A DNA stretch of 51,302 nt from the NCBI GenBank assembly GCA_964458565.1, contig CAYWJO010000022.1:1-51302 (forward strand), read 5' to 3'. The DNA comes from an uncultured archaeon. Its GTDB lineage: Archaea > Asgardarchaeota > Thorarchaeia > Thorarchaeales > Thorarchaeaceae. The notes under the pieces were generated by a model. It saw only the letters and a program-made list of their open reading frames with translations. It was not told the origin of the DNA and searched no databases. This document shows, in pieces, positions 482 through 15,903 of the stretch. The position numbers and the translations under genes were made by a program. Each line of letters starts with the position of its first letter. Position 1 is the stretch's first letter.

Positions 482-3400
482 TTACACACCTCCTCGGAAT
501 CTCGCAGCTGCTATTATCTGCGGTAGAAGTTGATCGCGTTTGTAGTGATGAATATCTATTGCATTTTGTGGACATCCTGCAGCGCAGGTTCCACATCCAG
601 CACATAATTCAGACACCACTCTACGCTCTTCTTTTTCTCCAGTGATTGCACCATAGGGACAAATCTCTGCACAAAGTTCGCAGTCAATACAAAGGTCGGT
701 ATCAATCTCTGCGTAATTGGGTTCTACCTTGAATACACCTGGTGCAAGTAACGCTTGAGCACCTGCTGCAGCAGCTTTACCATACGCTACAGCCTTTGGA
801 ATGTCCATAGGACCTAAGCAAGCTCCGGCAAGAAAGATACCATCCTGAAAAGCATCAACGGGGCGCAACTTTGGATGAGCTTCAAGTAAGAAACCATATT
901 CTCCCAACGAGAGCTTCATTTTTCTTGCTAGTTCCTTTGTGTCTTCGTGGGGATGAATAGCAGATGCTAATACAACCAAATCATGGCTGGTCCCCAGCAA
1001 TTCTCCCGTGTACAGGTCTTCAGCTAGTACTTTCAATGATTTAGTATCTGAGATTTCTTCAATCTCAGATGGACGTCCCTTGATGATCACGACTCCCATT
1101 CCTCGTGCTCTATGGTATAGACCTTCGTACCCAAGACCATGAGTTCTGATGTCCATCGCGTATATTGCAACTTCTGTATCAGGGTACTTCTCTTTGATCT
1201 GAGTCGCTTGTTTCAGAGAGTTTTCACACCCAATGTAACAACAATAATCCTGTCCTATTCGACGGTCTCTGGAACCTACACACTGAATGAAAGCAACAGA
1301 TTTTGGAACTTCATGATCGGAGGGTCGTTTTATCTTACCCTTCGTAGGACCAGCAGCGTTAGTGATTCGTTCCATCTGCGCATTTGTTATTACATTCTCA
1401 AATGTCCCATACCCATATTCACGAGTTTCAAGAGGATCATGTATCTTGAAACCGGTTGCGACTATTATTGCTCCTACATCAAGTTCGATAATTTCATCCT
1501 CAAGTGTATGATCGATTGCCTCTAATTTACAAGCTTCAACACATTCCATACATTCACTACAAACAGCACAGCTAAGACATCGATTTGCCTCAGCTACTGC
1601 CAATGCTTCATCGAATCCCAGTTCAACTTCATCAAATGAGTCCTTTCTCTGTCTTGCACTCAGTGTTGGCATAGATGCCCTTGGATTGTATTTGACATTC
1701 TCAGGATTGATCGTGACTTCAGTAAGAGGGTGAAGAGACTCAGGACGACCTTCCATTAAATCAGTCTTGCTTAGATATCTATCAATAGATATTGCTGCCT
1801 CTTTTCCTTCATGTATCGCATCAATAACTGTTGAACCACCAGAAACAAGGTCACCTCCAGCAAAGACACCCGATGTGCTTGTTTCCATCGTAGTCGGATT
1901 GACACTGATGGTACCCCACATAGTCTGCTCTAATCCGTCTATATGGGGTGCTTTGACTACTTCTTGGCCAATTGCAATGATAATATTATCAGCTTTCAGT
2001 TTGAATTCTGAATCGGGAATTAGAACCGGTCGTCTTCGACCAGATTGATCTGGTTCACCCAATCGCATTTTGATACATTCAACACCTGAAAGTACTCCAT
2101 CTTTCACTAGAACTCGAGTTGGATTTGTAAGGAACTTGATTTTTACACCCTCATTCTCTGCCTCCTCAATCTCACTCGAGATTGCAGGCATTTCTTCACG
2201 AGACCTCCTATAGACAATATCAACTCGAGCCCCCATGCGTCTAGCAGTTCTTGCGGCATCAATAGCTGCATTTCCTCCACCAACAACAATGACGGACTGT
2301 CCTATCTCCACCTTGCGATTACCGTTAACTCGCTCCAAGAAATCTATAGCATGATAGACACCTTTTGTGTTCTCATTCTCAATCCGCATTTTACGGCTAC
2401 CAGGTGCGCCTGTTGCTAGGAAGAATGCTTTGTATCCCTCTTTCTTCAAATCGCTCAATGATTCGACCTTTACACCTGTTTGAATCTCAACTCCTAACTT
2501 CCTCACTCTATCAATCTCTTCTTTGAGTATATTCCTGGGGAGTCGATATTCTGGAATGCCGTATCGTAGAAGACCACCAGGTTGTCTCTTGCTCTCAAAA
2601 ATCGTGACAGAGTAACCTTGCTTAACAAGATCGTGTGCACATGCAATGCCAGCTGGTCCGGCACCGACTACAGCCACGCGCTCTTTCTTAGTAATCTCGT
2701 AAGGTTCTACCTTATTGGATTTATCAGCCATTTCTTTGTCTGCAAGGAACCGATGTAGGTTCTTAATATTGAGAGCTCCCTCATATTGAGAGCGTTCACA
2801 TTTCACTTCACAAGGACTTGTGCAGACTCTTCCAAGAACTCCAGGAAATGGTGTTGATTCTCTATAAAGAGCAAGAGCTTTGTCAAACTTGCCATCACCA
2901 AGAAGAGCCACAAATCCCTGAACATTGACATGTGCAGGACAGGCTATTCTACATGCAGCGTGTCCAAGTTTCTCAATAGTGAATCTATTTGGAACTGATT
3001 GCGGAAACGGGCGGTAGACAGCTTTTCTTTCACTCAGACCAAAATCGTATGAGTTTGTAACTGTCACTGGACAAACAGGTTCACAATCACCACAACCATT
3101 ACACTTGTCGATATCAATGTAGCGAGATTTTTTCCGCACCTTCATATTGAAATTTCCCACATACCCATCTACTTCATCAACCTCACTATATGTATGCAAT
3201 TTGATGTTTGGATGTTGTCCCACTTCAGCCATGATTGGACCTAGAATACATATAGCACAATCGTTTTGAGGAAACACTTTGTCTAAAAGTGCCATTTGAC
3301 CACCTACTGTTGGACGTCTCTCGATCAGATGTGTTTCGAATCCTGCATTCGCTAAATCAAGAGATGCAGAAATTCCAGCCACTCCAGCTCCAATAACGGC

Positions 3401-3844
3401 AACTTTGGGAATCACATTGACTGATTGACGATGCAAGGGAAGTAGTCGCTTGACTCGTTCCACAGACATTGCTACAAGATGCTTTGCCTTCTTCGTAGCT
3501 AGCTCAGGTTGTTTCATGTGAACCCAGCTTACGTGTTCTCTGATGTTGACTTGATCATACAAGTACCGGTTGAGTCCAGCATCTTCAACACACTTTCTAA
3601 AGACAGGTTCATGTGTACGAGGTGTGCAACTAGCTACAACAACTCCAGTCAAGTTATATTTCTTAATGGCTTCCTGAATTGTTGCTTGACCATCATCTGA
3701 GCAAGCGAAAAGAAGATTAACAGCATGAGCAACACCATTTAGAGTTCCAGCGAATTTGGCTACATCAGCGCAATCAACAGTACTAGCTATATTCAATCCG
3801 CAATTACATACAAAGACACCAACTCTTGATTCTGAATCATACAT
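482..3844 (-). CDS. hdrA: Heterodisulfide reductase subunit A with inserted GltD/NfnB-like NAD(P)H-binding module (HdrA/HdrL-like, 1120 aa)
   Basis: GVFVCNCG N-terminus, SCTPRTHE, GAGVAG FAD motif, DCAICIL, ferredoxin motifs, CPAHVNVQ...GRVC, GAGPAG, GGGNAAIDAAR/YRRS, QCVGSR, EAHPKLRPV, C-terminal 2x[4Fe-4S]. Confidence 0.95.
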   Translation of the reverse strand: MYDSESRVGVFVCNCGLNIASTVDCADVAKFAGTLNGVAHAVNLLFACSDDGQATIQEAIKKYNLTGVVVASCTPRTHEPVFRKCVEDAGLNRYLYDQVNIREHVSWVHMKQPELATKKAKHLVAMSVERVKRLLPLHRQSVNVIPKVAVIGAGVAGISASLDLANAGFETHLIERRPTVGGQMALLDKVFPQNDCAICILGPIMAEVGQHPNIKLHTYSEVDEVDGYVGNFNMKVRKKSRYIDIDKCNGCGDCEPVCPVTVTNSYDFGLSERKAVYRPFPQSVPNRFTIEKLGHAACRIACPAHVNVQGFVALLGDGKFDKALALYRESTPFPGVLGRVCTSPCEVKCERSQYEGALNIKNLHRFLADKEMADKSNKVEPYEITKKERVAVVGAGPAGIACAHDLVKQGYSVTIFESKRQPGGLLRYGIPEYRLPRNILKEEIDRVRKLGVEIQTGVKVESLSDLKKEGYKAFFLATGAPGSRKMRIENENTKGVYHAIDFLERVNGNRKVEIGQSVIVVGGGNAAIDAARTARRMGARVDIVYRRSREEMPAISSEIEEAENEGVKIKFLTNPTRVLVKDGVLSGVECIKMRLGEPDQSGRRRPVLIPDSEFKLKADNIIIAIGQEVVKAPHIDGLEQTMWGTISVNPTTMETSTSGVFAGGDLVSGGSTVIDAIHEGKEAAISIDRYLSKTDLMEGRPESLHPLTEVTINPENVKYNPRASMPTLSARQRKDSFDEVELGFDEALAVAEANRCLSCAVCSECMECVEACKLEAIDHTLEDEIIELDVGAIIVATGFKIHDPLETREYGYGTFENVITNAQMERITNAAGPTKGKIKRPSDHEVPKSVAFIQCVGSRDRRIGQDYCCYIGCENSLKQATQIKEKYPDTEVAIYAMDIRTHGLGYEGLYHRARGMGVVIIKGRPSEIEEISDTKSLKVLAEDLYTGELLGTSHDLVVLASAIHPHEDTKELARKMKLSLGEYGFLLEAHPKLRPVDAFQDGIFLAGACLGPMDIPKAVAYGKAAAAGAQALLAPGVFKVEPNYAEIDTDLCIDCELCAEICPYGAITGEKEERRVVSELCAGCGTCAAGCPQNAIDIHHYKRDQLLPQIIAAARFRGGV

Positions 3845-4741: not shown

Positions 4742-5289
4742 TCTTCTTCAGCCTCCTTGTTTAGAGCGAGTAAATCATAGAATCCTGTAATTTCCGCAAT
4801 ACGTTTAATGTCTTCAATCGCAGGGTCCTGCAAAACTGGCAAACCCAGTTTCTCTCTCATTTTGTCTACCGTACCAGTCCTTGCACTAACACGTCCAATT
4901 TCCAAAACCATCTTGGCCATTTTCAGATAGCCCTTAGCACCCTTGCCCTCTTGCACAGCCATGTTTCTTAGAATTGTGACAATGTCCGTAAAGTTCACTT
5001 CTTGGATGCAGCGCTCTTCACAGGTAAAACAGGCCGCGCACAACCAAATATCGTCAGAAGAGAGTACTTGTTCTTCAAGACCCAGAAGGACCTTACCCAT
5101 TATCTTGCGGGGTCTATAATCGATTACAGATCCAACTGGACAACCACCACTACAAGCACCGCACTTAAGACAACGTAATAATCCCTCTCCACCCACTTGT
5201 TCCGCAACGCGATATTTGAAGGACGAGTGAACATCAAAATCATGTATTGGTTCATCAGATCTGTATGATTTTATTTCTCCTTTCTCCAT
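4738..5289 (-). CDS. hdrC: Heterodisulfide reductase subunit C
   Basis: CLKCGACSGGCP and WLCAACFTCEERC [4Fe-4S] motifs. Confidence 0.93.
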   Translation of the reverse strand: MEKGEIKSYRSDEPIHDFDVHSSFKYRVAEQVGGEGLLRCLKCGACSGGCPVGSVIDYRPRKIMGKVLLGLEEQVLSSDDIWLCAACFTCEERCIQEVNFTDIVTILRNMAVQEGKGAKGYLKMAKMVLEIGRVSARTGTVDKMREKLGLPVLQDPAIEDIKRIAEITGFYDLLALNKEAEEE

Positions 5290-5926
5290 GTGATTAACAG
5301 CTCCTTATCAAAGTAAGATTGTAAGATATAGTGTGTCTACTAAAAGAAATGGAGGAAATCGATTCGTGATTTTTGAGCATCGCCGCTTAACCTCCGATTC
5401 AGCTAATGCGTCATTGTACCAATGCAATGCTGCTATTCAGCAGCGCCATTTTATGATGAAGTTCTAGTCTAAATGTTGTAATCCACTGAATACCTATTCA
5501 ATGACGAACTAAAAAACAATTAATAACTCTATTCTTTTATTTTATTAAAAACTGTAAGAAAAAGAATAGTAATAAGATGTATTTGTATCCTACAAGCTTG
5601 TAAACAAATAGTAATCTGTAACCCACTTATATATAAAATAACGATACCAATGGTAACTTATTCTATTTAGAAATTTCCAAAACGTATGGTACTATTATAT
5701 TTTCTATTAGTATAAACGTATATTTTTGAGATTGCGTTTCCTAGTTCTTTGAGGAGTATTCAGCGCCTTTGAGTAACTGTATCACCTATTGGTAAAAATG
5801 AACGACTCGACATTGTCCTCACACATTAAGTTGAATTCTACTCGGAGGATTATATCTATCATTAAATGTCTTGAAATTGAATCACTGTGAGACGTAACAT
5901 ACATTGGGTATCAGATACCAAAACAT

Positions 5927-6703
5927 TTGATATATCGTTTGACTAGATTGCTTTGTGAGAGGTTCAATCTATTGGACGAAATATATGAGAAAATGCGGAA
6001 TGACCTGATTAAGGAAGGACTTCTAAAACCTGATGAGGAAATTGACAATATCGAGTTGACAAAGAAATGGCAGGAGTTACAGGTAAAGCAGATGAAAGCT
6101 GCAATGTCAGGAGCTTTTGATGATATAATCCCCTCAAGTTCAGATCGAACCAAGAAAGAAGGAGTGAAGCCTCCAAGTTTATTTCAAGATATGGAATCCC
6201 CTTTTGATTTCACTACTCAAAGTACATCTGAAAAAGAGATTGACGTTCGAGAAGGAATAAGACAAGCACTCGATGCACTTCTTAACAAAGCAATTGGTGC
6301 CAATTATTGTATGATTGTAGTGAATAGAGCATGGGTGAATTTTAGATATAAGAAGAACAAGGACAATCTTCACTTACAAGTTGCTGGAAACAAATACATC
6401 ACCCCAATGAAATTGGAAAATAGAGACATTGAGCATTTAGAGAACATGGGAATACCTCCAGAACCAATGTCTATTGAAATCTACGCACGCGATTTTAATA
6501 AAGAATCAAGAGATTTCAATAAAATCATAGAAGATATTATCGAGATTTTCAAAGACGTCTACCATGTCAGAGATGGCGATGATGCCTATGTAGAGCTTGA
6601 TCTTGGTAAAGGAGAAGATGAATCAATATTGAAGGAGATTGCCAAATTCTTTAGTAGTAGAAGTGGAAAGAAATTCACGTGGCAGTGGAACAACAGTATC
6701 TAA
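5927..6703 (+). CDS. Hypothetical protein, C-terminal half resembles TY-Chap (CesT/YbjN-like chaperone) domain; true start may be downstream (e.g. ATG 5993)
   Basis: 258-aa ORF; pattern WVNF...LHLQVAGNKYI...L..MG...IFKDVY. Confidence 0.6.
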   Translation: MIYRLTRLLCERFNLLDEIYEKMRNDLIKEGLLKPDEEIDNIELTKKWQELQVKQMKAAMSGAFDDIIPSSSDRTKKEGVKPPSLFQDMESPFDFTTQSTSEKEIDVREGIRQALDALLNKAIGANYCMIVVNRAWVNFRYKKNKDNLHLQVAGNKYITPMKLENRDIEHLENMGIPPEPMSIEIYARDFNKESRDFNKIIEDIIEIFKDVYHVRDGDDAYVELDLGKGEDESILKEIAKFFSSRSGKKFTWQWNNSI

Positions 6704-6741
6704 TATATGTAGGTCCTGCTGCTAAAAATAATCAATGAACC

Positions 6742-6820
6742 AATCAAGGTGAAAGGGAGATAGATCCCTTGGAATAGGAAAAGCGTGTCGAATGCTTGAT
6801 CTATCATCCCTTTCTTGATT
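6742..6820. other. Long multi-branch stem-loop between convergent genes (3' end of vhu operon)
   Basis: Nested inverted repeats AATCAAG/CTTGATT, AAAGGGA/TCCCTTT, GATAGATC/GATCTATC enclosing two small hairpins. Confidence 0.6.
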
Positions 6821-6899
6821 TATCTGGAAATGTTGGTAGCGCCCTTCTCCGTTTCAGAACAATTCCATTCTCCAACATTTTACTCATCTCATTTATTAA

Positions 6900-6997
6900 A
6901 GGAAGAAAGTGACCGGCGAACCCTTGCGGGGTTGTCCAGTCCAGACCAAGTCTTTCGGTCGGGACCTTCATCCGCCGCCAGTCACGAGCTCCTTCCT
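6900..6997 (-). promoter_or_regulatory. Eukaryote-like (Asgard-type) SECIS element of vhuU
   Basis: Minus strand: AUGAA-GGUCC-C-GACC-GAAAGACUU-GGUC-U-GGACU-GGAC gives an AUGA/GA core, ~11-nt helix II and an AAA apical loop. It is closed by GUGACUGGCG/CGCCGGUCAC and GGAAGGAG/UUUCUUCC stems, with a side hairpin AACCC-CGCAA-GGGUU. Confidence 0.85.
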
Positions 6998-7120
6998 AAC
7001 TATTTCGCGGCCCTCGTCGTCGACGACGACTAAATGAGCGCCGCAAGATAGTCAGCAATCATAGCACCGAACCACCATTTCCAGGAGATTCAGTACGCCT
7101 TCAGGTATCTCGTCCGTCAT
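6968..7120 (-). CDS. vhuU: Selenoprotein VhuU, small C-terminal subunit of group 3c [NiFeSe]-hydrogenase (MTDEIPEGVLNLLEMVVRCYDCULSCGAHLVVVDDEGREIVRKELVTGGG)
   Basis: ATG 16 nt after vhuA stop; in-frame TGA at 7054-7052 in the R-x-Y-D-x-U-x-x-C-x-x-H Ni-binding L2 motif that vhuA lacks; SECIS downstream. Confidence 0.93.
7000..7051 (-). promoter_or_regulatory. In-frame stem-loop directly 3' of the Sec UGA (Sec redefinition element-like)
   Basis: CUAUCUUGCGGC pairs with GCCGCGAAAUAG (11 of 12), then CUC/GAG and GUCGUC-GUC-GACGAC. Confidence 0.65.
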
Positions 7121-7135
7121 TGTTTTGTTTCCTTT

Positions 7136-8452
7136 CTAGTGTTTAACCATTGGTTCTGGAAGATTGATCTGACTTAGACCATTCTCCTCTAGTATGAATT
7201 TAGCAGCATCCATGAGACTCTTCTCGATCCCTGCTATGTTATTATTAGTTGCAACAATTAGATTAGCATGAGTGAGCATACCTTTGTCATCACTCTCATA
7301 ATTATGCAACAGTATTCCTCTAGGAGCCTCGACAACACCAACTCCATTCCCTGCTTTCGGTTCCACATCAGAGAGTTTTACATCAGTGCTGACAATGTCA
7401 TCATCTTCTAGGAGTGTCTTTATCCACTCAACAGCTTGGACTGTTTCAACAATGCGAGCGTAATGATAAGCAAATGTGTGATGCGATGGTCTTCCTACGA
7501 GTTCACGCATCTCTTTGAGAGCCGCGTCTGCGAGTGGAGTTGCCATCTTATCAGCTACATTACACCTAGCAAGAGTATTGGCTCGCCATATGCCATCTGG
7601 ATATCCGGCTGGTTTGTAGTAGATATGTGTAGCATAGCTGTGATTTGGAATATGTTCTCCATAATACTGAAGATAATCCTTCGGTTCGAAGTCAGCGACT
7701 ATCTTACCCTCTGGATCCATAACACGAATTGTTCCATCGTAGATATCCAACTCACCGTTGTTTGCTAGACCAATGTAATAAGTCGGTGTAACAGCAACCT
7801 TCGTGACAACATCGATGTAGGCATTTACCACGGTCTTTGCTAGTTCAACTGTCTTGTTCAAATTATCAAGAAGTTCGGGTATCTGTTTCAACCATTTCTG
7901 TCGATCGTCCTCTGGAAGTGAGTGGAGCATTCCTCCTGGAATCGCAGTTACAGGATGTATTGCTTTCGCACCAATATCCCGGCAGAGTTCTTGTCCGAAC
8001 TCCATCATCTTGATAGCCTGAACTGCTACATCGGGTAAGTCTTTCAAGACCTGAGCGACATTTCTCAATGAAGGATCCGCTGTTGGACCATAAACAAAAT
8101 CAGGAGCAGCAAGTGCATAGAAGTGGATCATGTGACTGCTCAGTTGCTTTGCTTCAATGAGTAATCTTCGAAGTTTCACTGCTGCTGGTGGGATTTTTAT
8201 ATCCCAAGCTGCTTCAACCGCTTTCACTGAAGCCAAGTGATGGGGTATTGGACAAATACCACAGATTCTTGGAGCAATCCGAGGGGCTTCCTCCATTTGT
8301 CTACCGACCAGAAATTGTTCAAAGAAACGTGTGCTGTTCACGTTGAACTGAATATCCTTTACTTTACCCCCTTCACCAAGCTTGATGGTTAGAGAGCCAT
8401 GTCCTTCTAGTCTTGTCACTGGGTCAATTCTGACTGTCTTCACTCCTGTCAA
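7136..8452 (-). CDS. vhuA: Group 3c [NiFe(Se)]-hydrogenase large subunit VhuA/MvhA, lacking C-terminal DPCxxCxxH
   Basis: IDPVTRLEGH, RICGICPIPH (L1), EAPRG, NLIVAT; ends LPEPMVKH without L2 motif. Confidence 0.93.
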   Translation of the reverse strand: MTGVKTVRIDPVTRLEGHGSLTIKLGEGGKVKDIQFNVNSTRFFEQFLVGRQMEEAPRIAPRICGICPIPHHLASVKAVEAAWDIKIPPAAVKLRRLLIEAKQLSSHMIHFYALAAPDFVYGPTADPSLRNVAQVLKDLPDVAVQAIKMMEFGQELCRDIGAKAIHPVTAIPGGMLHSLPEDDRQKWLKQIPELLDNLNKTVELAKTVVNAYIDVVTKVAVTPTYYIGLANNGELDIYDGTIRVMDPEGKIVADFEPKDYLQYYGEHIPNHSYATHIYYKPAGYPDGIWRANTLARCNVADKMATPLADAALKEMRELVGRPSHHTFAYHYARIVETVQAVEWIKTLLEDDDIVSTDVKLSDVEPKAGNGVGVVEAPRGILLHNYESDDKGMLTHANLIVATNNNIAGIEKSLMDAAKFILEENGLSQINLPEPMVKH

Positions 8453-9375
8453 TGCTGTTTAGCCTCCTCACGTTTGATACGCATTCTACCCAGATGGCTA
8501 GTTGCGTAATCAAATCTATAGAACATACTAAGTGGATCAGGAACTTGTATCCTCAGTGCTTCTGGATCATTAGGTGCGTAGGTACCAAGCATGGACATCG
8601 AAGCTGCACCATGGTCGGACATAATCGGTGGCGGTGGTCCAAAGCATCCACGGCATGTGGTTCCATGACTCACGCATTGCCCCTCACAGAGACCCCATGT
8701 TGAAGAACCAAGACAGATGTAGCCTTGTTCCAACAGACAGCGGTCTGGATCTGCATGACCTGAAAAAGGTCGGAGAATCTCTGGGATAGGTGTTTCCTTC
8801 TTCTCGCGATCACAATAGTGGCATACCGTATGTGTGGGTAATTCAAGTTCCTTACCTTCAAGTAATGCTGTCACCGCAGTTAAGATGAGCTTCGATGTGG
8901 GGGGACAACCGGGTAGGAATATATCAAAGTCTACAAAGTCAGTGTTTGGTCTTACTACAGGTTCGATAGCAGGTAAATTCTCAGAAGGTACTTTACCACC
9001 ACTGAATGTTTTATTCTCTCTAAACTTTGTGGTTAGACATTCTTCAATATCATAGAAGTTAGCTAATCCAGGGATACCTCCGAAACATGAACATGAACCA
9101 AATGCAATGAGAATTTGACACTTCTCACGCATGACTTTCAGAAGATGAATGTCCTCCGCAGTCCTAGCCATACCCTCGAAAAAGCCGACTACGATTGACT
9201 TATCGGGGTAACCTTCAAGGTCAGAGAGTTTGTAATCAACAACAGCTTGCCAGTATTTGATATCAAGCAAAGGTAAGACTGTCGCTAGATTTAGATGAAT
9301 GTCTACAAGACTTTGGAAGCATCCCCAGCAGGAACTTCCTTGTCCCATTGCGACTGGTACAGGATCTGCCACCAT
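8449..9375 (-). CDS. vhuG: F420-non-reducing hydrogenase small subunit VhuG/MvhG
   Basis: SSCWGC, FGSCSCFGGIPGL, LPGCPP, VCHYCDR, CLLEQGYICLG, CRGCFGP. Confidence 0.92.
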   Translation of the reverse strand: MVADPVPVAMGQGSSCWGCFQSLVDIHLNLATVLPLLDIKYWQAVVDYKLSDLEGYPDKSIVVGFFEGMARTAEDIHLLKVMREKCQILIAFGSCSCFGGIPGLANFYDIEECLTTKFRENKTFSGGKVPSENLPAIEPVVRPNTDFVDFDIFLPGCPPTSKLILTAVTALLEGKELELPTHTVCHYCDREKKETPIPEILRPFSGHADPDRCLLEQGYICLGSSTWGLCEGQCVSHGTTCRGCFGPPPPIMSDHGAASMSMLGTYAPNDPEALRIQVPDPLSMFYRFDYATSHLGRMRIKREEAKQH

Positions 9376-9614
9376 TAGACCTCCTTAAGTGCGTAGATGA
9401 GTTCATGTTCATCTTCACCCACTACATCCACATCACCCCAACGAATCATACCTACTAAATTCCAAAGAAGGAGATCCTTTGGCATTTTTGTGGATTTGTG
9501 AAGTTCACTTATTGTTGCTGGATTACCAGAGAGTGTTTTGAAAATCACACTGCGTTGTTTCCTTACATCCCTACGGTTTTGTTGGAAATAACTTTCATAA
9601 TTTCTCATTTCCAT
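9375..9614 (-). CDS. Small winged-helix-like protein embedded in hydrogenase operon
   Basis: 79 aa, coupled to both neighbours; PATISELHKSTKMPKDLLLWNLVGMIRWGDV HTH-like pattern. Confidence 0.7.
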   Translation of the reverse strand: MEMRNYESYFQQNRRDVRKQRSVIFKTLSGNPATISELHKSTKMPKDLLLWNLVGMIRWGDVDVVGEDEHELIYALKEV

Positions 9615-10048
9615 TCCCTCTCGATAGGACCAAGTTCTTTGACTTGATTAATGAGTGTTCTAACACCATCTGCGAATATCTGCGCTTCTGATGCGCTCGC
9701 CCATTGTAACCTAACGCGTTTTGGATTTACTCCAGATTGCTCTATAGATCTCTCCATAAGCGCCCAACGAGCTTGTAGTTTTAGATTCCCACTCGTATAG
9801 TGACAATCACCAGGATGGCAACCACTTACGAGTACTCCATCAGCACCCATATCTAATGCAGCGAGTATGAACTCGACGTTAATCCTACCAGTACAATTTA
9901 CTCGTAGAATCCTAGCATTGGTGGGGTACTGAATACGACTTGTACCAGCCAGGTCAGCTCCCGCATACGAGCACCAATTGCAGCAATAAGCGAGAATCCT
10001 TGGCTCCCATTGTTCTTCTACCGTCTGTTGTTCTGTTGCTGTTACCAT
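9605..10048 (-). CDS. mvhD: MvhD/VhuD (second copy)
   Basis: YCCNWCSYAGADLAG, RVNCTGRI, GCHPGDCHY, WASASEA. Confidence 0.95.
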   Translation of the reverse strand: MVTATEQQTVEEQWEPRILAYCCNWCSYAGADLAGTSRIQYPTNARILRVNCTGRINVEFILAALDMGADGVLVSGCHPGDCHYTSGNLKLQARWALMERSIEQSGVNPKRVRLQWASASEAQIFADGVRTLINQVKELGPIEREWK

Positions 10049-13152: not shown

Positions 13153-15903
13153 TTACTTACCCTCCTTACTTTTTGAGAGCATGATACTCGCTCTCATTGC
13201 AGCAGCACTGCCTGCTGATACTGAATCGGGAATGTCTTTTGGACCATCGGCGCACCCACATACAAATACACCCCGTGTGAGTGTGTCCACAGGTTCTGTA
13301 ATAGAGTCCATGACACTTACAAATCCATCATCTGAAAGACCAATTCCAAGTTCAGCTGCTAAGTCCTCCAAATCTTCCGGAGGTAAAAGTCCAGGACTGA
13401 TGATGATCAAATCATGCTCGATATCCTGAATTTCGCCAGTCTCAATATTCTCGACTCGTACGACAAGGTTTCCATTCTCTTTTTCGGTAACCTCTCCGAC
13501 TCTCCCACGAGTAAAACCAACACCAAATTGGCTCTGTGCTCTCTCATAGAATTGTTCGAAGTCTTTTCCGAAGGCTCGGATATCTGCGTAATAGATATTC
13601 ACATTCGATTCGGGGTGATGTTCTTTTGTCATCACACCCAATTTTATTCCATACATGCAACATACTCGGGAGCAATATGGAACGCCTTTATCAACATCTC
13701 TTGATCCAACGCATTGAATGAAACCAATACTATGTGGTATTTTTCCATCACTTAATCGAATGAGGTGACCATGTGTTGGCCCAGCTGCATTCATGAGCCG
13801 CTCGTATTCCATAGCATGTAGGACATTCGGATACTTACCATATCCCAGACGCGGATATTGAGTAACATCAAAGAGTTTCCATCCTGTGGCAACAATAATT
13901 GCGCCTACATTTAGATCAAGAACAGTATCAGTCATTGAATGATCAATTGCTTCTCGTTGACAAGCTGCAACACATTGTTCACATTCACAACAGACGGCGC
14001 ATCCAAGACATCGCTCGGCTTCAGCAATTGCTGTATCCCGATTGAATCCGATTTCCACTTCTGTGAAATTGGTCCTCCTGCTTACGAGACCCGCTTTAGG
14101 CATAACAGAACGAGATTCTACCTTAACGTCATCCTTCGGTACTTCAAAGGATTGAACCCGATTTCTCTCCTTGTATCTCCCTTCACCAATATTCTCACCT
14201 TGGAGATATCTGTCAATAGAAATCGCAGCTTCCTTCCCATGACCAACAGCTTTCACAACAGTTAATGGTCCTGAAACGACATCGCCACCAGCAAACACAC
14301 CAGGTATGTTTGTTTCAAGAGTCTGAGGATTAACGTCAACTGTACTCCACTTAGAGCAATTGCAGTCGGTTTGTACTCCTGCAGGATCAGCAGCTTGACC
14401 AATAGCTACTATGATGTTATCAACAGCCATTGTAAACTCGCTGTTTGGGATTGGTACAGGTCTTCTTCGTCCAGAATGGTCTGGTTCACCGAGACGCATC
14501 TTCACACATCGGATTCCTGAAATGGCACCATGTGCTGAAATGATATTAATAGGATTTGTGAGTAGCATGTATTTGATTCCCTCATTTCGAGAATCATCCA
14601 CTTCACTTGGTATTGCAGGTAGTTCAACATGAGATCGACGGTACACTACTGTGACTTCTTTGGCTCCAAGTCGAAGAGCTACTCTGGCTGAGTCAACAGC
14701 AGCATCTCCACCACCTACCACGACTACTTTCTCTCCAATGGGTAGATATTCATGGCATGCAGCTTTCTCGAGGAAATCAATCGCGTGGTAGACACCTTTT
14801 ATGTCTTCACCAGGGATACCCATTTTGTTACTTTGAGCGGCTCCTGTGGCGATAAAGACTGCTTTGAATCCCTGTTCTTCTGTTAGTTTCTTAATAGAGT
14901 TGATCTTGGTTTTTGTCTTAATCTTTACACCCATATCAATAACACGTTGAATTTCTTCTTCGAGAATCTCTCGTGGTAATCGATACTCAGGAATTGAATA
15001 TCGTAGAAGACCACCTGGCTTATCCTTCGCTTCAAAGATAGTCACTGGATAACCCTTCCTAGCAAGCTGATATGCACAGCTTATTCCAGCAGGCCCAGCG
15101 CCAATGATAGCCACTTTGTCCTCTTTGTCAATATTGACTTCAATAGGAGCAGGCTCTCCAATTGATCGTTCGTAATCAGCCAAGAATCTATGAAGATTTC
15201 TTATACTTATGCTCTCATCCAGCATTCCCCGCTCGCATTCGGCTTCACAGAAACTGACACATACTCGTCCAAGTACACCTGGGAATGGTATTGAATCCCG
15301 TACTATCTCAAGAGCCTCTTTGAACTTACCATGACGAATCATGGTAACGAAACCCTGTGCGTTCACCTCTGCAGGGCATGTTGCTCTGCAGGCAGGCTCT
15401 CCCTTTTTGGAGACGGTGTATGTGTTGGGTGTAGCTTGTGGAAATGGTTGATAGATAGCCTTTCTAAAGCCTAACCCCCACTCGAATTCATTGGGCACTT
15501 CTACCGGACATACTTCCACGCAGTCTCCGCATCCACTACATTTGTCCTCATCAACGTAACGAGCTCGTCTATGGATCTTTACATTAAAATCGCCCGCCTC
15601 ACCTATCACTGATTTAAGCTCAGAATATGTCAAGAGATTGATGTTAGGGTGACGAGCTACTTCAGATAGCTTTGGTGTCAGAATACATGCAGAACAATCC
15701 AATGTCGGAAAGGTTTTATCAATAGCAGCCATTCGGCCCCCAATCGATGAATTCTTGTCCAACAGATAAACTGGAAATCCCTGATTTGCAAGATCAAGGG
15801 CTGCAGTCATCCCGGCGACACCGCCTCCAATAACGAGAGCGGCAGGACCATTATGGTCGGTTTCACTGGTGGTAGATGATTTATCGACACGCTCTACTGT
15901 CAA
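13153..15903 (-). CDS. hdrA: HdrA paralog (916 aa) with inserted ferredoxin + GltD/NfnB-like NAD(P)H module, lacking N-terminal domain and C-terminal ferredoxin
   Basis: Begins near ALVIGGGVAG; TFPTLDCSACIL, GAGPAG, GGGDAAVDSAR/YRRS, QCVGSR, CSRVCC, GPKDIP; TTG start after GGAGG. Confidence 0.9.
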   Translation of the reverse strand: MTVERVDKSSTTSETDHNGPAALVIGGGVAGMTAALDLANQGFPVYLLDKNSSIGGRMAAIDKTFPTLDCSACILTPKLSEVARHPNINLLTYSELKSVIGEAGDFNVKIHRRARYVDEDKCSGCGDCVEVCPVEVPNEFEWGLGFRKAIYQPFPQATPNTYTVSKKGEPACRATCPAEVNAQGFVTMIRHGKFKEALEIVRDSIPFPGVLGRVCVSFCEAECERGMLDESISIRNLHRFLADYERSIGEPAPIEVNIDKEDKVAIIGAGPAGISCAYQLARKGYPVTIFEAKDKPGGLLRYSIPEYRLPREILEEEIQRVIDMGVKIKTKTKINSIKKLTEEQGFKAVFIATGAAQSNKMGIPGEDIKGVYHAIDFLEKAACHEYLPIGEKVVVVGGGDAAVDSARVALRLGAKEVTVVYRRSHVELPAIPSEVDDSRNEGIKYMLLTNPINIISAHGAISGIRCVKMRLGEPDHSGRRRPVPIPNSEFTMAVDNIIVAIGQAADPAGVQTDCNCSKWSTVDVNPQTLETNIPGVFAGGDVVSGPLTVVKAVGHGKEAAISIDRYLQGENIGEGRYKERNRVQSFEVPKDDVKVESRSVMPKAGLVSRRTNFTEVEIGFNRDTAIAEAERCLGCAVCCECEQCVAACQREAIDHSMTDTVLDLNVGAIIVATGWKLFDVTQYPRLGYGKYPNVLHAMEYERLMNAAGPTHGHLIRLSDGKIPHSIGFIQCVGSRDVDKGVPYCSRVCCMYGIKLGVMTKEHHPESNVNIYYADIRAFGKDFEQFYERAQSQFGVGFTRGRVGEVTEKENGNLVVRVENIETGEIQDIEHDLIIISPGLLPPEDLEDLAAELGIGLSDDGFVSVMDSITEPVDTLTRGVFVCGCADGPKDIPDSVSAGSAAAMRASIMLSKSKEGK

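Follow-up and report, generated by a model that had tools for sequence, protein, structure and literature searches.

The window, a stretch of 51,302 nucleotides (contig CAYWJO010000022.1 of assembly GCA_964458565.1), belongs to a metagenome-assembled genome (MAG) of 3.7 Mb in 93 contigs with a GC content of ~41%. Read along its minus strand, the locus carries an HdrA/GltD-like fusion, hdrC, hdrB, hdrA, mvhD, a 79-aa open reading frame (ORF), vhuG, vhuA, and a short gene, vhuU, which is the last gene of the operon hdrCBA-mvhD-(small ORF)-vhuG-vhuA-vhuU (Table 1). Genes for the large, small, and delta hydrogenase subunits stand together with hdrABC, the gene content by which group 3c Mvh/Vhu-HdrABC enzymes are recognized. 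The nearest relatives of VhuA are proteins of 438 to 439 aa and 76 to 90% identity, all from Thorarchaeota MAGs, and the related loci drawn from GTDB species representatives are nearly all labelled Thorarchaeota; we therefore assign the window to an Asgard archaeon and not to the Methanococcales. The Methanococcales setting of the preliminary description of this DNA had to be given up on these grounds, the host being a Thorarchaeota archaeon and no methanogen.

Table 1. Features of the vhu locus, with the evidence on which each assignment rests
Feature	Position in window	Strand	Basis
hdrC	13150-12656	-	Pfam; same operon, upstream
hdrB	12659-11796	-	Pfam; same operon, upstream
hdrA	11793-10048	-	Pfam; same operon, upstream
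mvhD/vhuD, delta subunit, without in-frame UGA	9605-10048	-	PF02662, E=5.6e-49; NF045873
vhuG, hydrogenase small subunit	8449-9375	-	PF01058; NF045875 (VhuG), 235 bits
vhuA, [NiFe]-hydrogenase large subunit without C-terminal Ni motif, 438 aa	7136-8452	-	PF00374; NF041785, 502 bits
vhuU, 50 sense codons including Sec23, plus TGA stop	6968-7120	-	ORF reading; NF041786 match; present at 45 of 48 related loci
Predicted mature VhuU, Met1-His29, motif C19-Y-D-C22-U23-L-S-C26-G-A-H29	7034-7120	-	Cleavage inferred
Sec codon UGA (codon 23), predicted terminal Ni ligand	7052-7054	-	Alignment to Sec/Cys ligand; invariant in 46 of 46
C-terminal tail, codons 30-50, presumably cleaved off by the maturation protease, doubling as RNA stems	6971-7033	-	FrhA-tail alignment
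Coding-region hairpin with the Sec UGA in its base	6997-7054	-	Pairing versus slid controls; synonymous recodings
Eukaryote-like SECIS	6903-6993	-	RNAalifold and pair counts, 46 sequences
SECIS outer stem	6993-6989/6907-6903	-	
SECIS lower stem	6985-6976/6918-6909	-	
SECIS AUGA core, containing the vhuU stop codon, invariant	6971-6968	-	
SECIS upper stem	6966-6957/6948-6938	-	
SECIS apical loop with AAA	6956-6949	-	
SECIS 3' GA	6936-6935	-	
Small extra hairpin inside SECIS	6932-6920	-	

Several other features of the neighborhood were recorded. The 79-aa ORF between mvhD and vhuG (9375-9614, minus strand) has no Pfam or NCBIfam match; it occupies the same position in 40 of the 48 Thorarchaeota loci, with 37 to 55% identity over most of its length, and may be an operon member encoding a small protein of the winged-helix type. 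Two long HdrA-like proteins of 1,120 and 916 aa with GltD/NAD(P)-binding-type domains are encoded on the minus strand at 482-3844 and 13153-15903, each beside a separate hdrBC set (Pfam scan). On the other side of vhuU, a 258-aa ORF without a family match (5927-6703, plus strand) converges on it, which implies that the vhu operon ends at the SECIS; a pyrimidine- and T-rich tract follows that element. When TGA was read as Sec throughout 5250-6960, no second selenoprotein gene appeared in this interval, where the 258-aa plus-strand ORF was the only one found.

From 7120 to 6968 of the minus strand, the sequence reads as ATG, 21 sense codons, TGA as codon 23, another 27 sense codons, and the stop codon TGA at 6970-6968. 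The ATG lies 16 nt downstream of the vhuA stop, and the length agrees with the ~45 to 50 codons by which VhuU is recognized. With standard stops, no ORF of at least 40 aa is listed at this position, and rereading of the sequence bore out both the coordinates and the content of the preliminary description, namely, a 50-codon gene hidden by an in-frame TGA at codon 23. The product runs ...LEMVVRCYDC-U-LSCGAH and continues into a 21-residue acidic and hydrophobic tail. Its partner VhuA has cysteines at positions 64, 67, 157, and 297 and no others. Its one CxxC lies in the N-terminal RICGIC, and VhuA is, as had been claimed, without the second Ni-binding CxxC, while the small gene supplies UxxCxxH. 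Because vhuA and vhuU share a frame in the window, with TAG and five codons between them, a read-through fusion was considered as well; the relative frame of the two varies among relatives, which argues for two genes, and the fusion was rejected.

Profile searches and solved structures were used to place both proteins. With C in place of U, the VhuU peptide matches the NCBIfam VhuU family NF041786 (E=6.9e-15; 54.6 bits; profile positions 2-38 of 45), a score that does not reach the family cut-off of 70 bits, just as the 502 bits of VhuA do not reach the cut-off of 800 for NF041785. Scores under the equivalog cut-offs point to a divergent (Asgard) lineage of the family, and the NF041786 cut-off appears to have been set for close relatives of the characterized enzyme. 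The best match of VhuA in the Protein Data Bank is a split VhuA of 418 aa (chain g of 9sfi/9t1s, 9sfi_g; E=2.3e-134). Chain M of the same structures, a VhuU of 27 aa, can be aligned with residues 5-30 of the peptide encoded in the window, with its X (Sec) opposite U23 (RAYDPXYSCAAH in 9sfi_M, RCYDCULSCGAH in the window), and ends one residue past the equivalent motif His. Against the unsplit MvhA 5odc_F (473 aa), VhuA aligns to residues 4-412 and VhuU to 426-452. U23 falls opposite the first Cys of DPCxxC in the MvhA/FrhA chains 3zfs_A, 7t2r_D, 9sw2_F, and 5odc_F; in 5odc_F, the motif beneath it is DPCLSCATH. C26 and H29 follow U23 in VhuU. The tail of the peptide aligns with the C-terminal tail of FrhA (3zfs_A, residues 387-403). 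The alignment of the UGA with the Sec or Cys ligand of solved relatives, expected in the preliminary description, was thus recovered both for the Sec of 9sfi_M and for the first Cys of the MvhA/FrhA motif. We are highly confident in predicting that 7120-6968 is vhuU and that it encodes, in a Thorarchaeota host, the small, Sec-containing subunit of a split [NiFeSe] hydrogenase of group 3c (Vhu/Mvh type).

The behavior of the UGA codon was evaluated across related loci. vhuU follows vhuA in 45 of 48 Thorarchaeota loci; among the remaining three, two end too early and one, L038, is without the gene. At that locus (JAWOEX010000011.1, 1300-3799), vhuA looks intact and no vhuU is found within 2.5 kb downstream, which may reflect loss or relocation of the gene. 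TGA at the Sec codon is invariant in all 46 Thorarchaeota copies, the window counted. In a scan of 400 Asgard genomes, 323 matched the VhuU peptide at E<=0.01, and exactly one TGA was present in 149 of the 150 top Asgard matches listed. The preliminary description had tied its reading to TGA, and not TGC or TGT, at this codon, and the invariance of TGA across relatives sustains that choice. A sequencing or assembly error for TGC or TGT might be entertained on the grounds that the source is a MAG in 93 contigs, but the same TGA recurs across 45 independent assemblies as well as 148 of 149 further Asgard matches listed, and a SECIS accompanies it that is absent from the one Cys form examined; we regard error as extremely improbable. 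That natural Cys form (DCC) was found at loci L103/L118 (G199:C96:5417-5566; RCYDCCLSCSAH), where the gene is terminated by TAA and the AUGA core is missing, which is what a SECIS requirement limited to Sec would predict.

Differences among relatives were then broken down by codon position as mean pairwise values over 32 copies of 153 nt. Before the UGA, positions 1, 2, and 3 differ by 0.108, 0.009, and 0.377; in the six codons after it, by 0.0, 0.038, and 0.201; and in the tail, by 0.143, 0.04, and 0.305. Just after the UGA, synonymous differences outnumber nonsynonymous ones 585:112, and the residues of UxxCxxH are invariant across the Thorarchaeota copies. The excess of third-position and synonymous differences past the UGA indicates that the frame is translated through it. 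By this comparative evidence, the frame downstream of UGA23 is under purifying selection, and the TGA is not there by chance. Were the TGA a true stop, leaving a decaying pseudogene or a 22-aa fragment with its downstream similarity a mere relic, the end that standard gene callers place at this codon and the missing vhuU of L038 would both be accounted for; however, selection persists past the UGA (0.0/0.038/0.201) with UxxCxxH unchanged, and VhuA alone would be without two of the four Ni-Fe ligands, yet it remains 76 to 90% identical in relatives. We consider a true stop very unlikely. Reassignment of TGA throughout the genome was rejected as well, since TGA works as an ordinary terminator elsewhere in the window, where it closes 8 of 28 long open frames.

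The preliminary description also depended on the host genome encoding Sec machinery, and a complete set is present. A compact cluster at 17876-22105 of contig C1 of the host genome (L001, L003, L052, and L057) comprises a PSTK-like gene, a tRNA-Sec, SepSecS, and EFSec. The tRNA-Sec scores 57.6 bits, and its TCA anticodon was confirmed by ARAGORN, which detected no tRNA within the window itself, the tRNA-Sec being on another contig. SepSecS was identified at E=2.3e-111 and EFSec at 293.7 bits, over its cut-off, while the PSTK-like gene (E=2.6e-37) scores 129 bits, under the curated cut-off of 290. SelD, at 141341-142162 of contig C2, has one in-frame TGA and would on that account be a selenoprotein itself. 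As far as gene content can tell, the Sec-decoding trait of the archaeal/eukaryotic type is complete in this genome. A further alternative is that decoding of the UGA does not always yield Sec, Cys or another residue being inserted under selenium limitation or constitutively to give a [NiFe] site. The genome has no paralogue of vhuU with Cys, the sole other match of the peptide being the C terminus of an unsplit 439-aa hydrogenase on contig C1; the cell consequently lacks a backup of the Vhc type, and misincorporation would be its one alternative to Sec. Against such decoding stand the full Sec machinery and a dedicated, conserved SECIS, together with the retention of TGA in 46 of 46 Thorarchaeota copies and in 149 of 150 among the Asgard matches listed, which would be unexpected if Cys served equally well. 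We judge it very improbable and take Sec as the predicted residue at position 23.

An alignment of 118 nt surrounding the stop codon in 46 sequences, designated A1, folds as a conserved three-way structure that overlaps the coding sequence. Paired cells amount to 93.7%, versus 36 to 49% with slid partners, and compensatory changes occur in 15 of 27 pairs. One mismatch interrupts the upper stem of 10 to 11 bp, and the loop reads G-N-AAA, which matches the apical-loop signature G[U/G]AAA published for Thorarchaeia (PMC11227280). Type I Asgard SECIS elements have been defined by an AUGA...GA core, an upper stem of 7 to 15 bp with at most two mismatches, unpaired apical A's, and a position at or after the end of the coding sequence (PMC11227280), and the window element has all of these. 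It went undetected by the Rfam SECIS models: neither a gathering-threshold scan of the whole window nor a permissive scan of 6850-7130 returned SECIS or any other credible family.

A second structure lies within the coding region. This hairpin, which spans 7054-6997, has the Sec UGA as its very first nucleotides, and 3 nt separate its 3' end from the outer stem of the SECIS. Across the 46 sequences, 88% of its cells are paired, versus 32 to 54% in slid controls, with three compensatory pairs. Its minimum free energy is -31.5 kcal/mol, versus -13.1 +/- 3.5 kcal/mol for 1,000 synonymous recodings (z = -5.3). Seven relatives gave hairpin z values from -3.5 to -7.2, while codons 1-22 of vhuU gave -1.7. 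In the class of copies with a 12-nt insertion, the hairpin is retained and lengthened. Single-sequence RNAfold of 12 vhuU copies from Asgard archaea other than Thorarchaeota, Loki-type copies included, yielded no comparable fold (-13 to -21 kcal/mol), in agreement with the published finding that RNAz detected nothing beyond the SECIS in Lokiarchaeota. Probably the hairpin pauses or slows translating ribosomes or keeps the SECIS adjacent to the codon that is recoded.

The residues around Sec23 also depart from those of solved relatives. Asp-Pro before Sec is absent: the sequence is DCU in all 46 Thorarchaeota copies and DCU or DCC in 15 of 15 other Asgard copies. An additional cysteine, Cys19, completes a CxxC-UxxC arrangement in 46 of 46 Thorarchaeota and 14 of 15 other Asgard copies. 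The motif C-Y-D-C-U-L-S-C (7034-7066, minus strand) is Asgard-wide, with Cys in place of the near-universal Pro before Sec. In VhuA, Cys157 (codon at 7984-7982) is conserved in seven of seven Asgard VhuA proteins, and four solved relatives of group 3c (MvhA/VhuA type; 5odc_F, 9sfi_g, 7t2r_D, and 9sw2_F) have Val or Ile at the corresponding position.

These observations on RNA and protein can be drawn into one joint reading, which we put forward tentatively and with some leaning against it: a two-part recoding signal in the Thorarchaeia vhuU mRNA combined with a Cys-based redox switch at the Ni-Fe-Se site. For the first part, a hairpin maintained by codon choice and the SECIS may act together, with the last 150 nt folding as one domain that brings the SECIS next to the UGA. 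For the second, the Cys-Sec dyad of CxxC-UxxC and Cys157 of VhuA could form a selenenylsulfide/disulfide switch that protects or regulates the site. If true, archaea would possess, in hairpin plus SECIS, an equivalent of the Sec redefinition element of eukaryotes or the UGA-proximal SECIS of bacteria.

Expression and function of the enzyme can be outlined as follows. The SECIS would recruit EFSec and Sec-tRNA, so that UGA23 would be decoded as Sec, and the terminal UGA would escape recoding because it is buried in the SECIS core. Maturation of [NiFe] hydrogenases involves C-terminal cleavage after the motif His. One HycI-family maturation protease is encoded in the genome (contig C5, 16583-16912). 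After Ni-Fe insertion, a protease of this type would cut VhuU after His29, and the remaining 29-aa peptide would close the active site. Sec23 and Cys26 of VhuU, with Cys64 and Cys67 of VhuA, would ligate the Ni-Fe center, Sec serving as a terminal Ni ligand. Electrons from H2 would pass through VhuG and MvhD to HdrABC, with flavin-based bifurcation.

For annotation, the consequence is that gene callers miss vhuU, and the Thorarchaeota hydrogenase then seems short of half its Ni ligands when, on our reading, it is a complete [NiFeSe] enzyme. Models of Asgard physiology and of eukaryogenesis center on hydrogen metabolism. The finding of vhuU itself is already known: VhuU selenoproteins with this SECIS type have been described in Lokiarchaeota, where AUGA doubles as the stop in Loki VhuU.1 (Mariotti et al. 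2016, PMC4989117), and an Asgard selenoproteome that includes Thorarchaeia found the FrhA/MvhA/VhuU family in 68.3% of Sec-utilizing genomes (ISME J 2024, PMC11227280). The novelty of the gene is therefore low. What the present analysis adds are the UGA hairpin, the three-way SECIS overlapping the coding sequence, and CxxC-UxxC with VhuA Cys157, which may be lineage specific. In neither paper (PMC4989117 or PMC11227280) did we find mention of the hairpin, the extra SECIS hairpin, CxxC-UxxC, or Cys157.

Compared with the published Asgard VhuU and FrhA-MvhA-VhuU selenoproteins, the window gene is the same gene, of the same size, with the same Sec position and a type I eSECIS-like element, and nothing essential differs. 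With Methanococcales VhuU (the Methanococcus voltae and M. jannaschii type; chain M of 9sfi/9t1s), it shares its status as a small gene of its own that immediately follows a truncated vhuA, one Sec residue that comes first in the C-terminal Ni motif and is followed by xxCxxH and a tail, and the partners VhuG and VhuD. It differs in having DCU where theirs have DPU and an extra Cys (RCY) that places CxxC directly before UxxC. The SECIS is a eukaryote-like AUGA...GA kink-turn, unlike the GAA_A of the methanogen type; the host is no methanogen; and the HMM scores fall under the equivalog cut-offs. In unsplit MvhA (5odc_F, 9sw2_F, and 7t2r_D), one sequence spans what VhuA and VhuU span together, and the four-ligand Ni-Fe site and the logic of C-terminal processing are shared as well, but MvhA is a single polypeptide with Cys. 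Periplasmic/bacterial [NiFeSe] hydrogenases (for example, 2wpn and 1cc1) likewise differ from the window enzyme, being single polypeptides with a bacterial SECIS inside the coding sequence.
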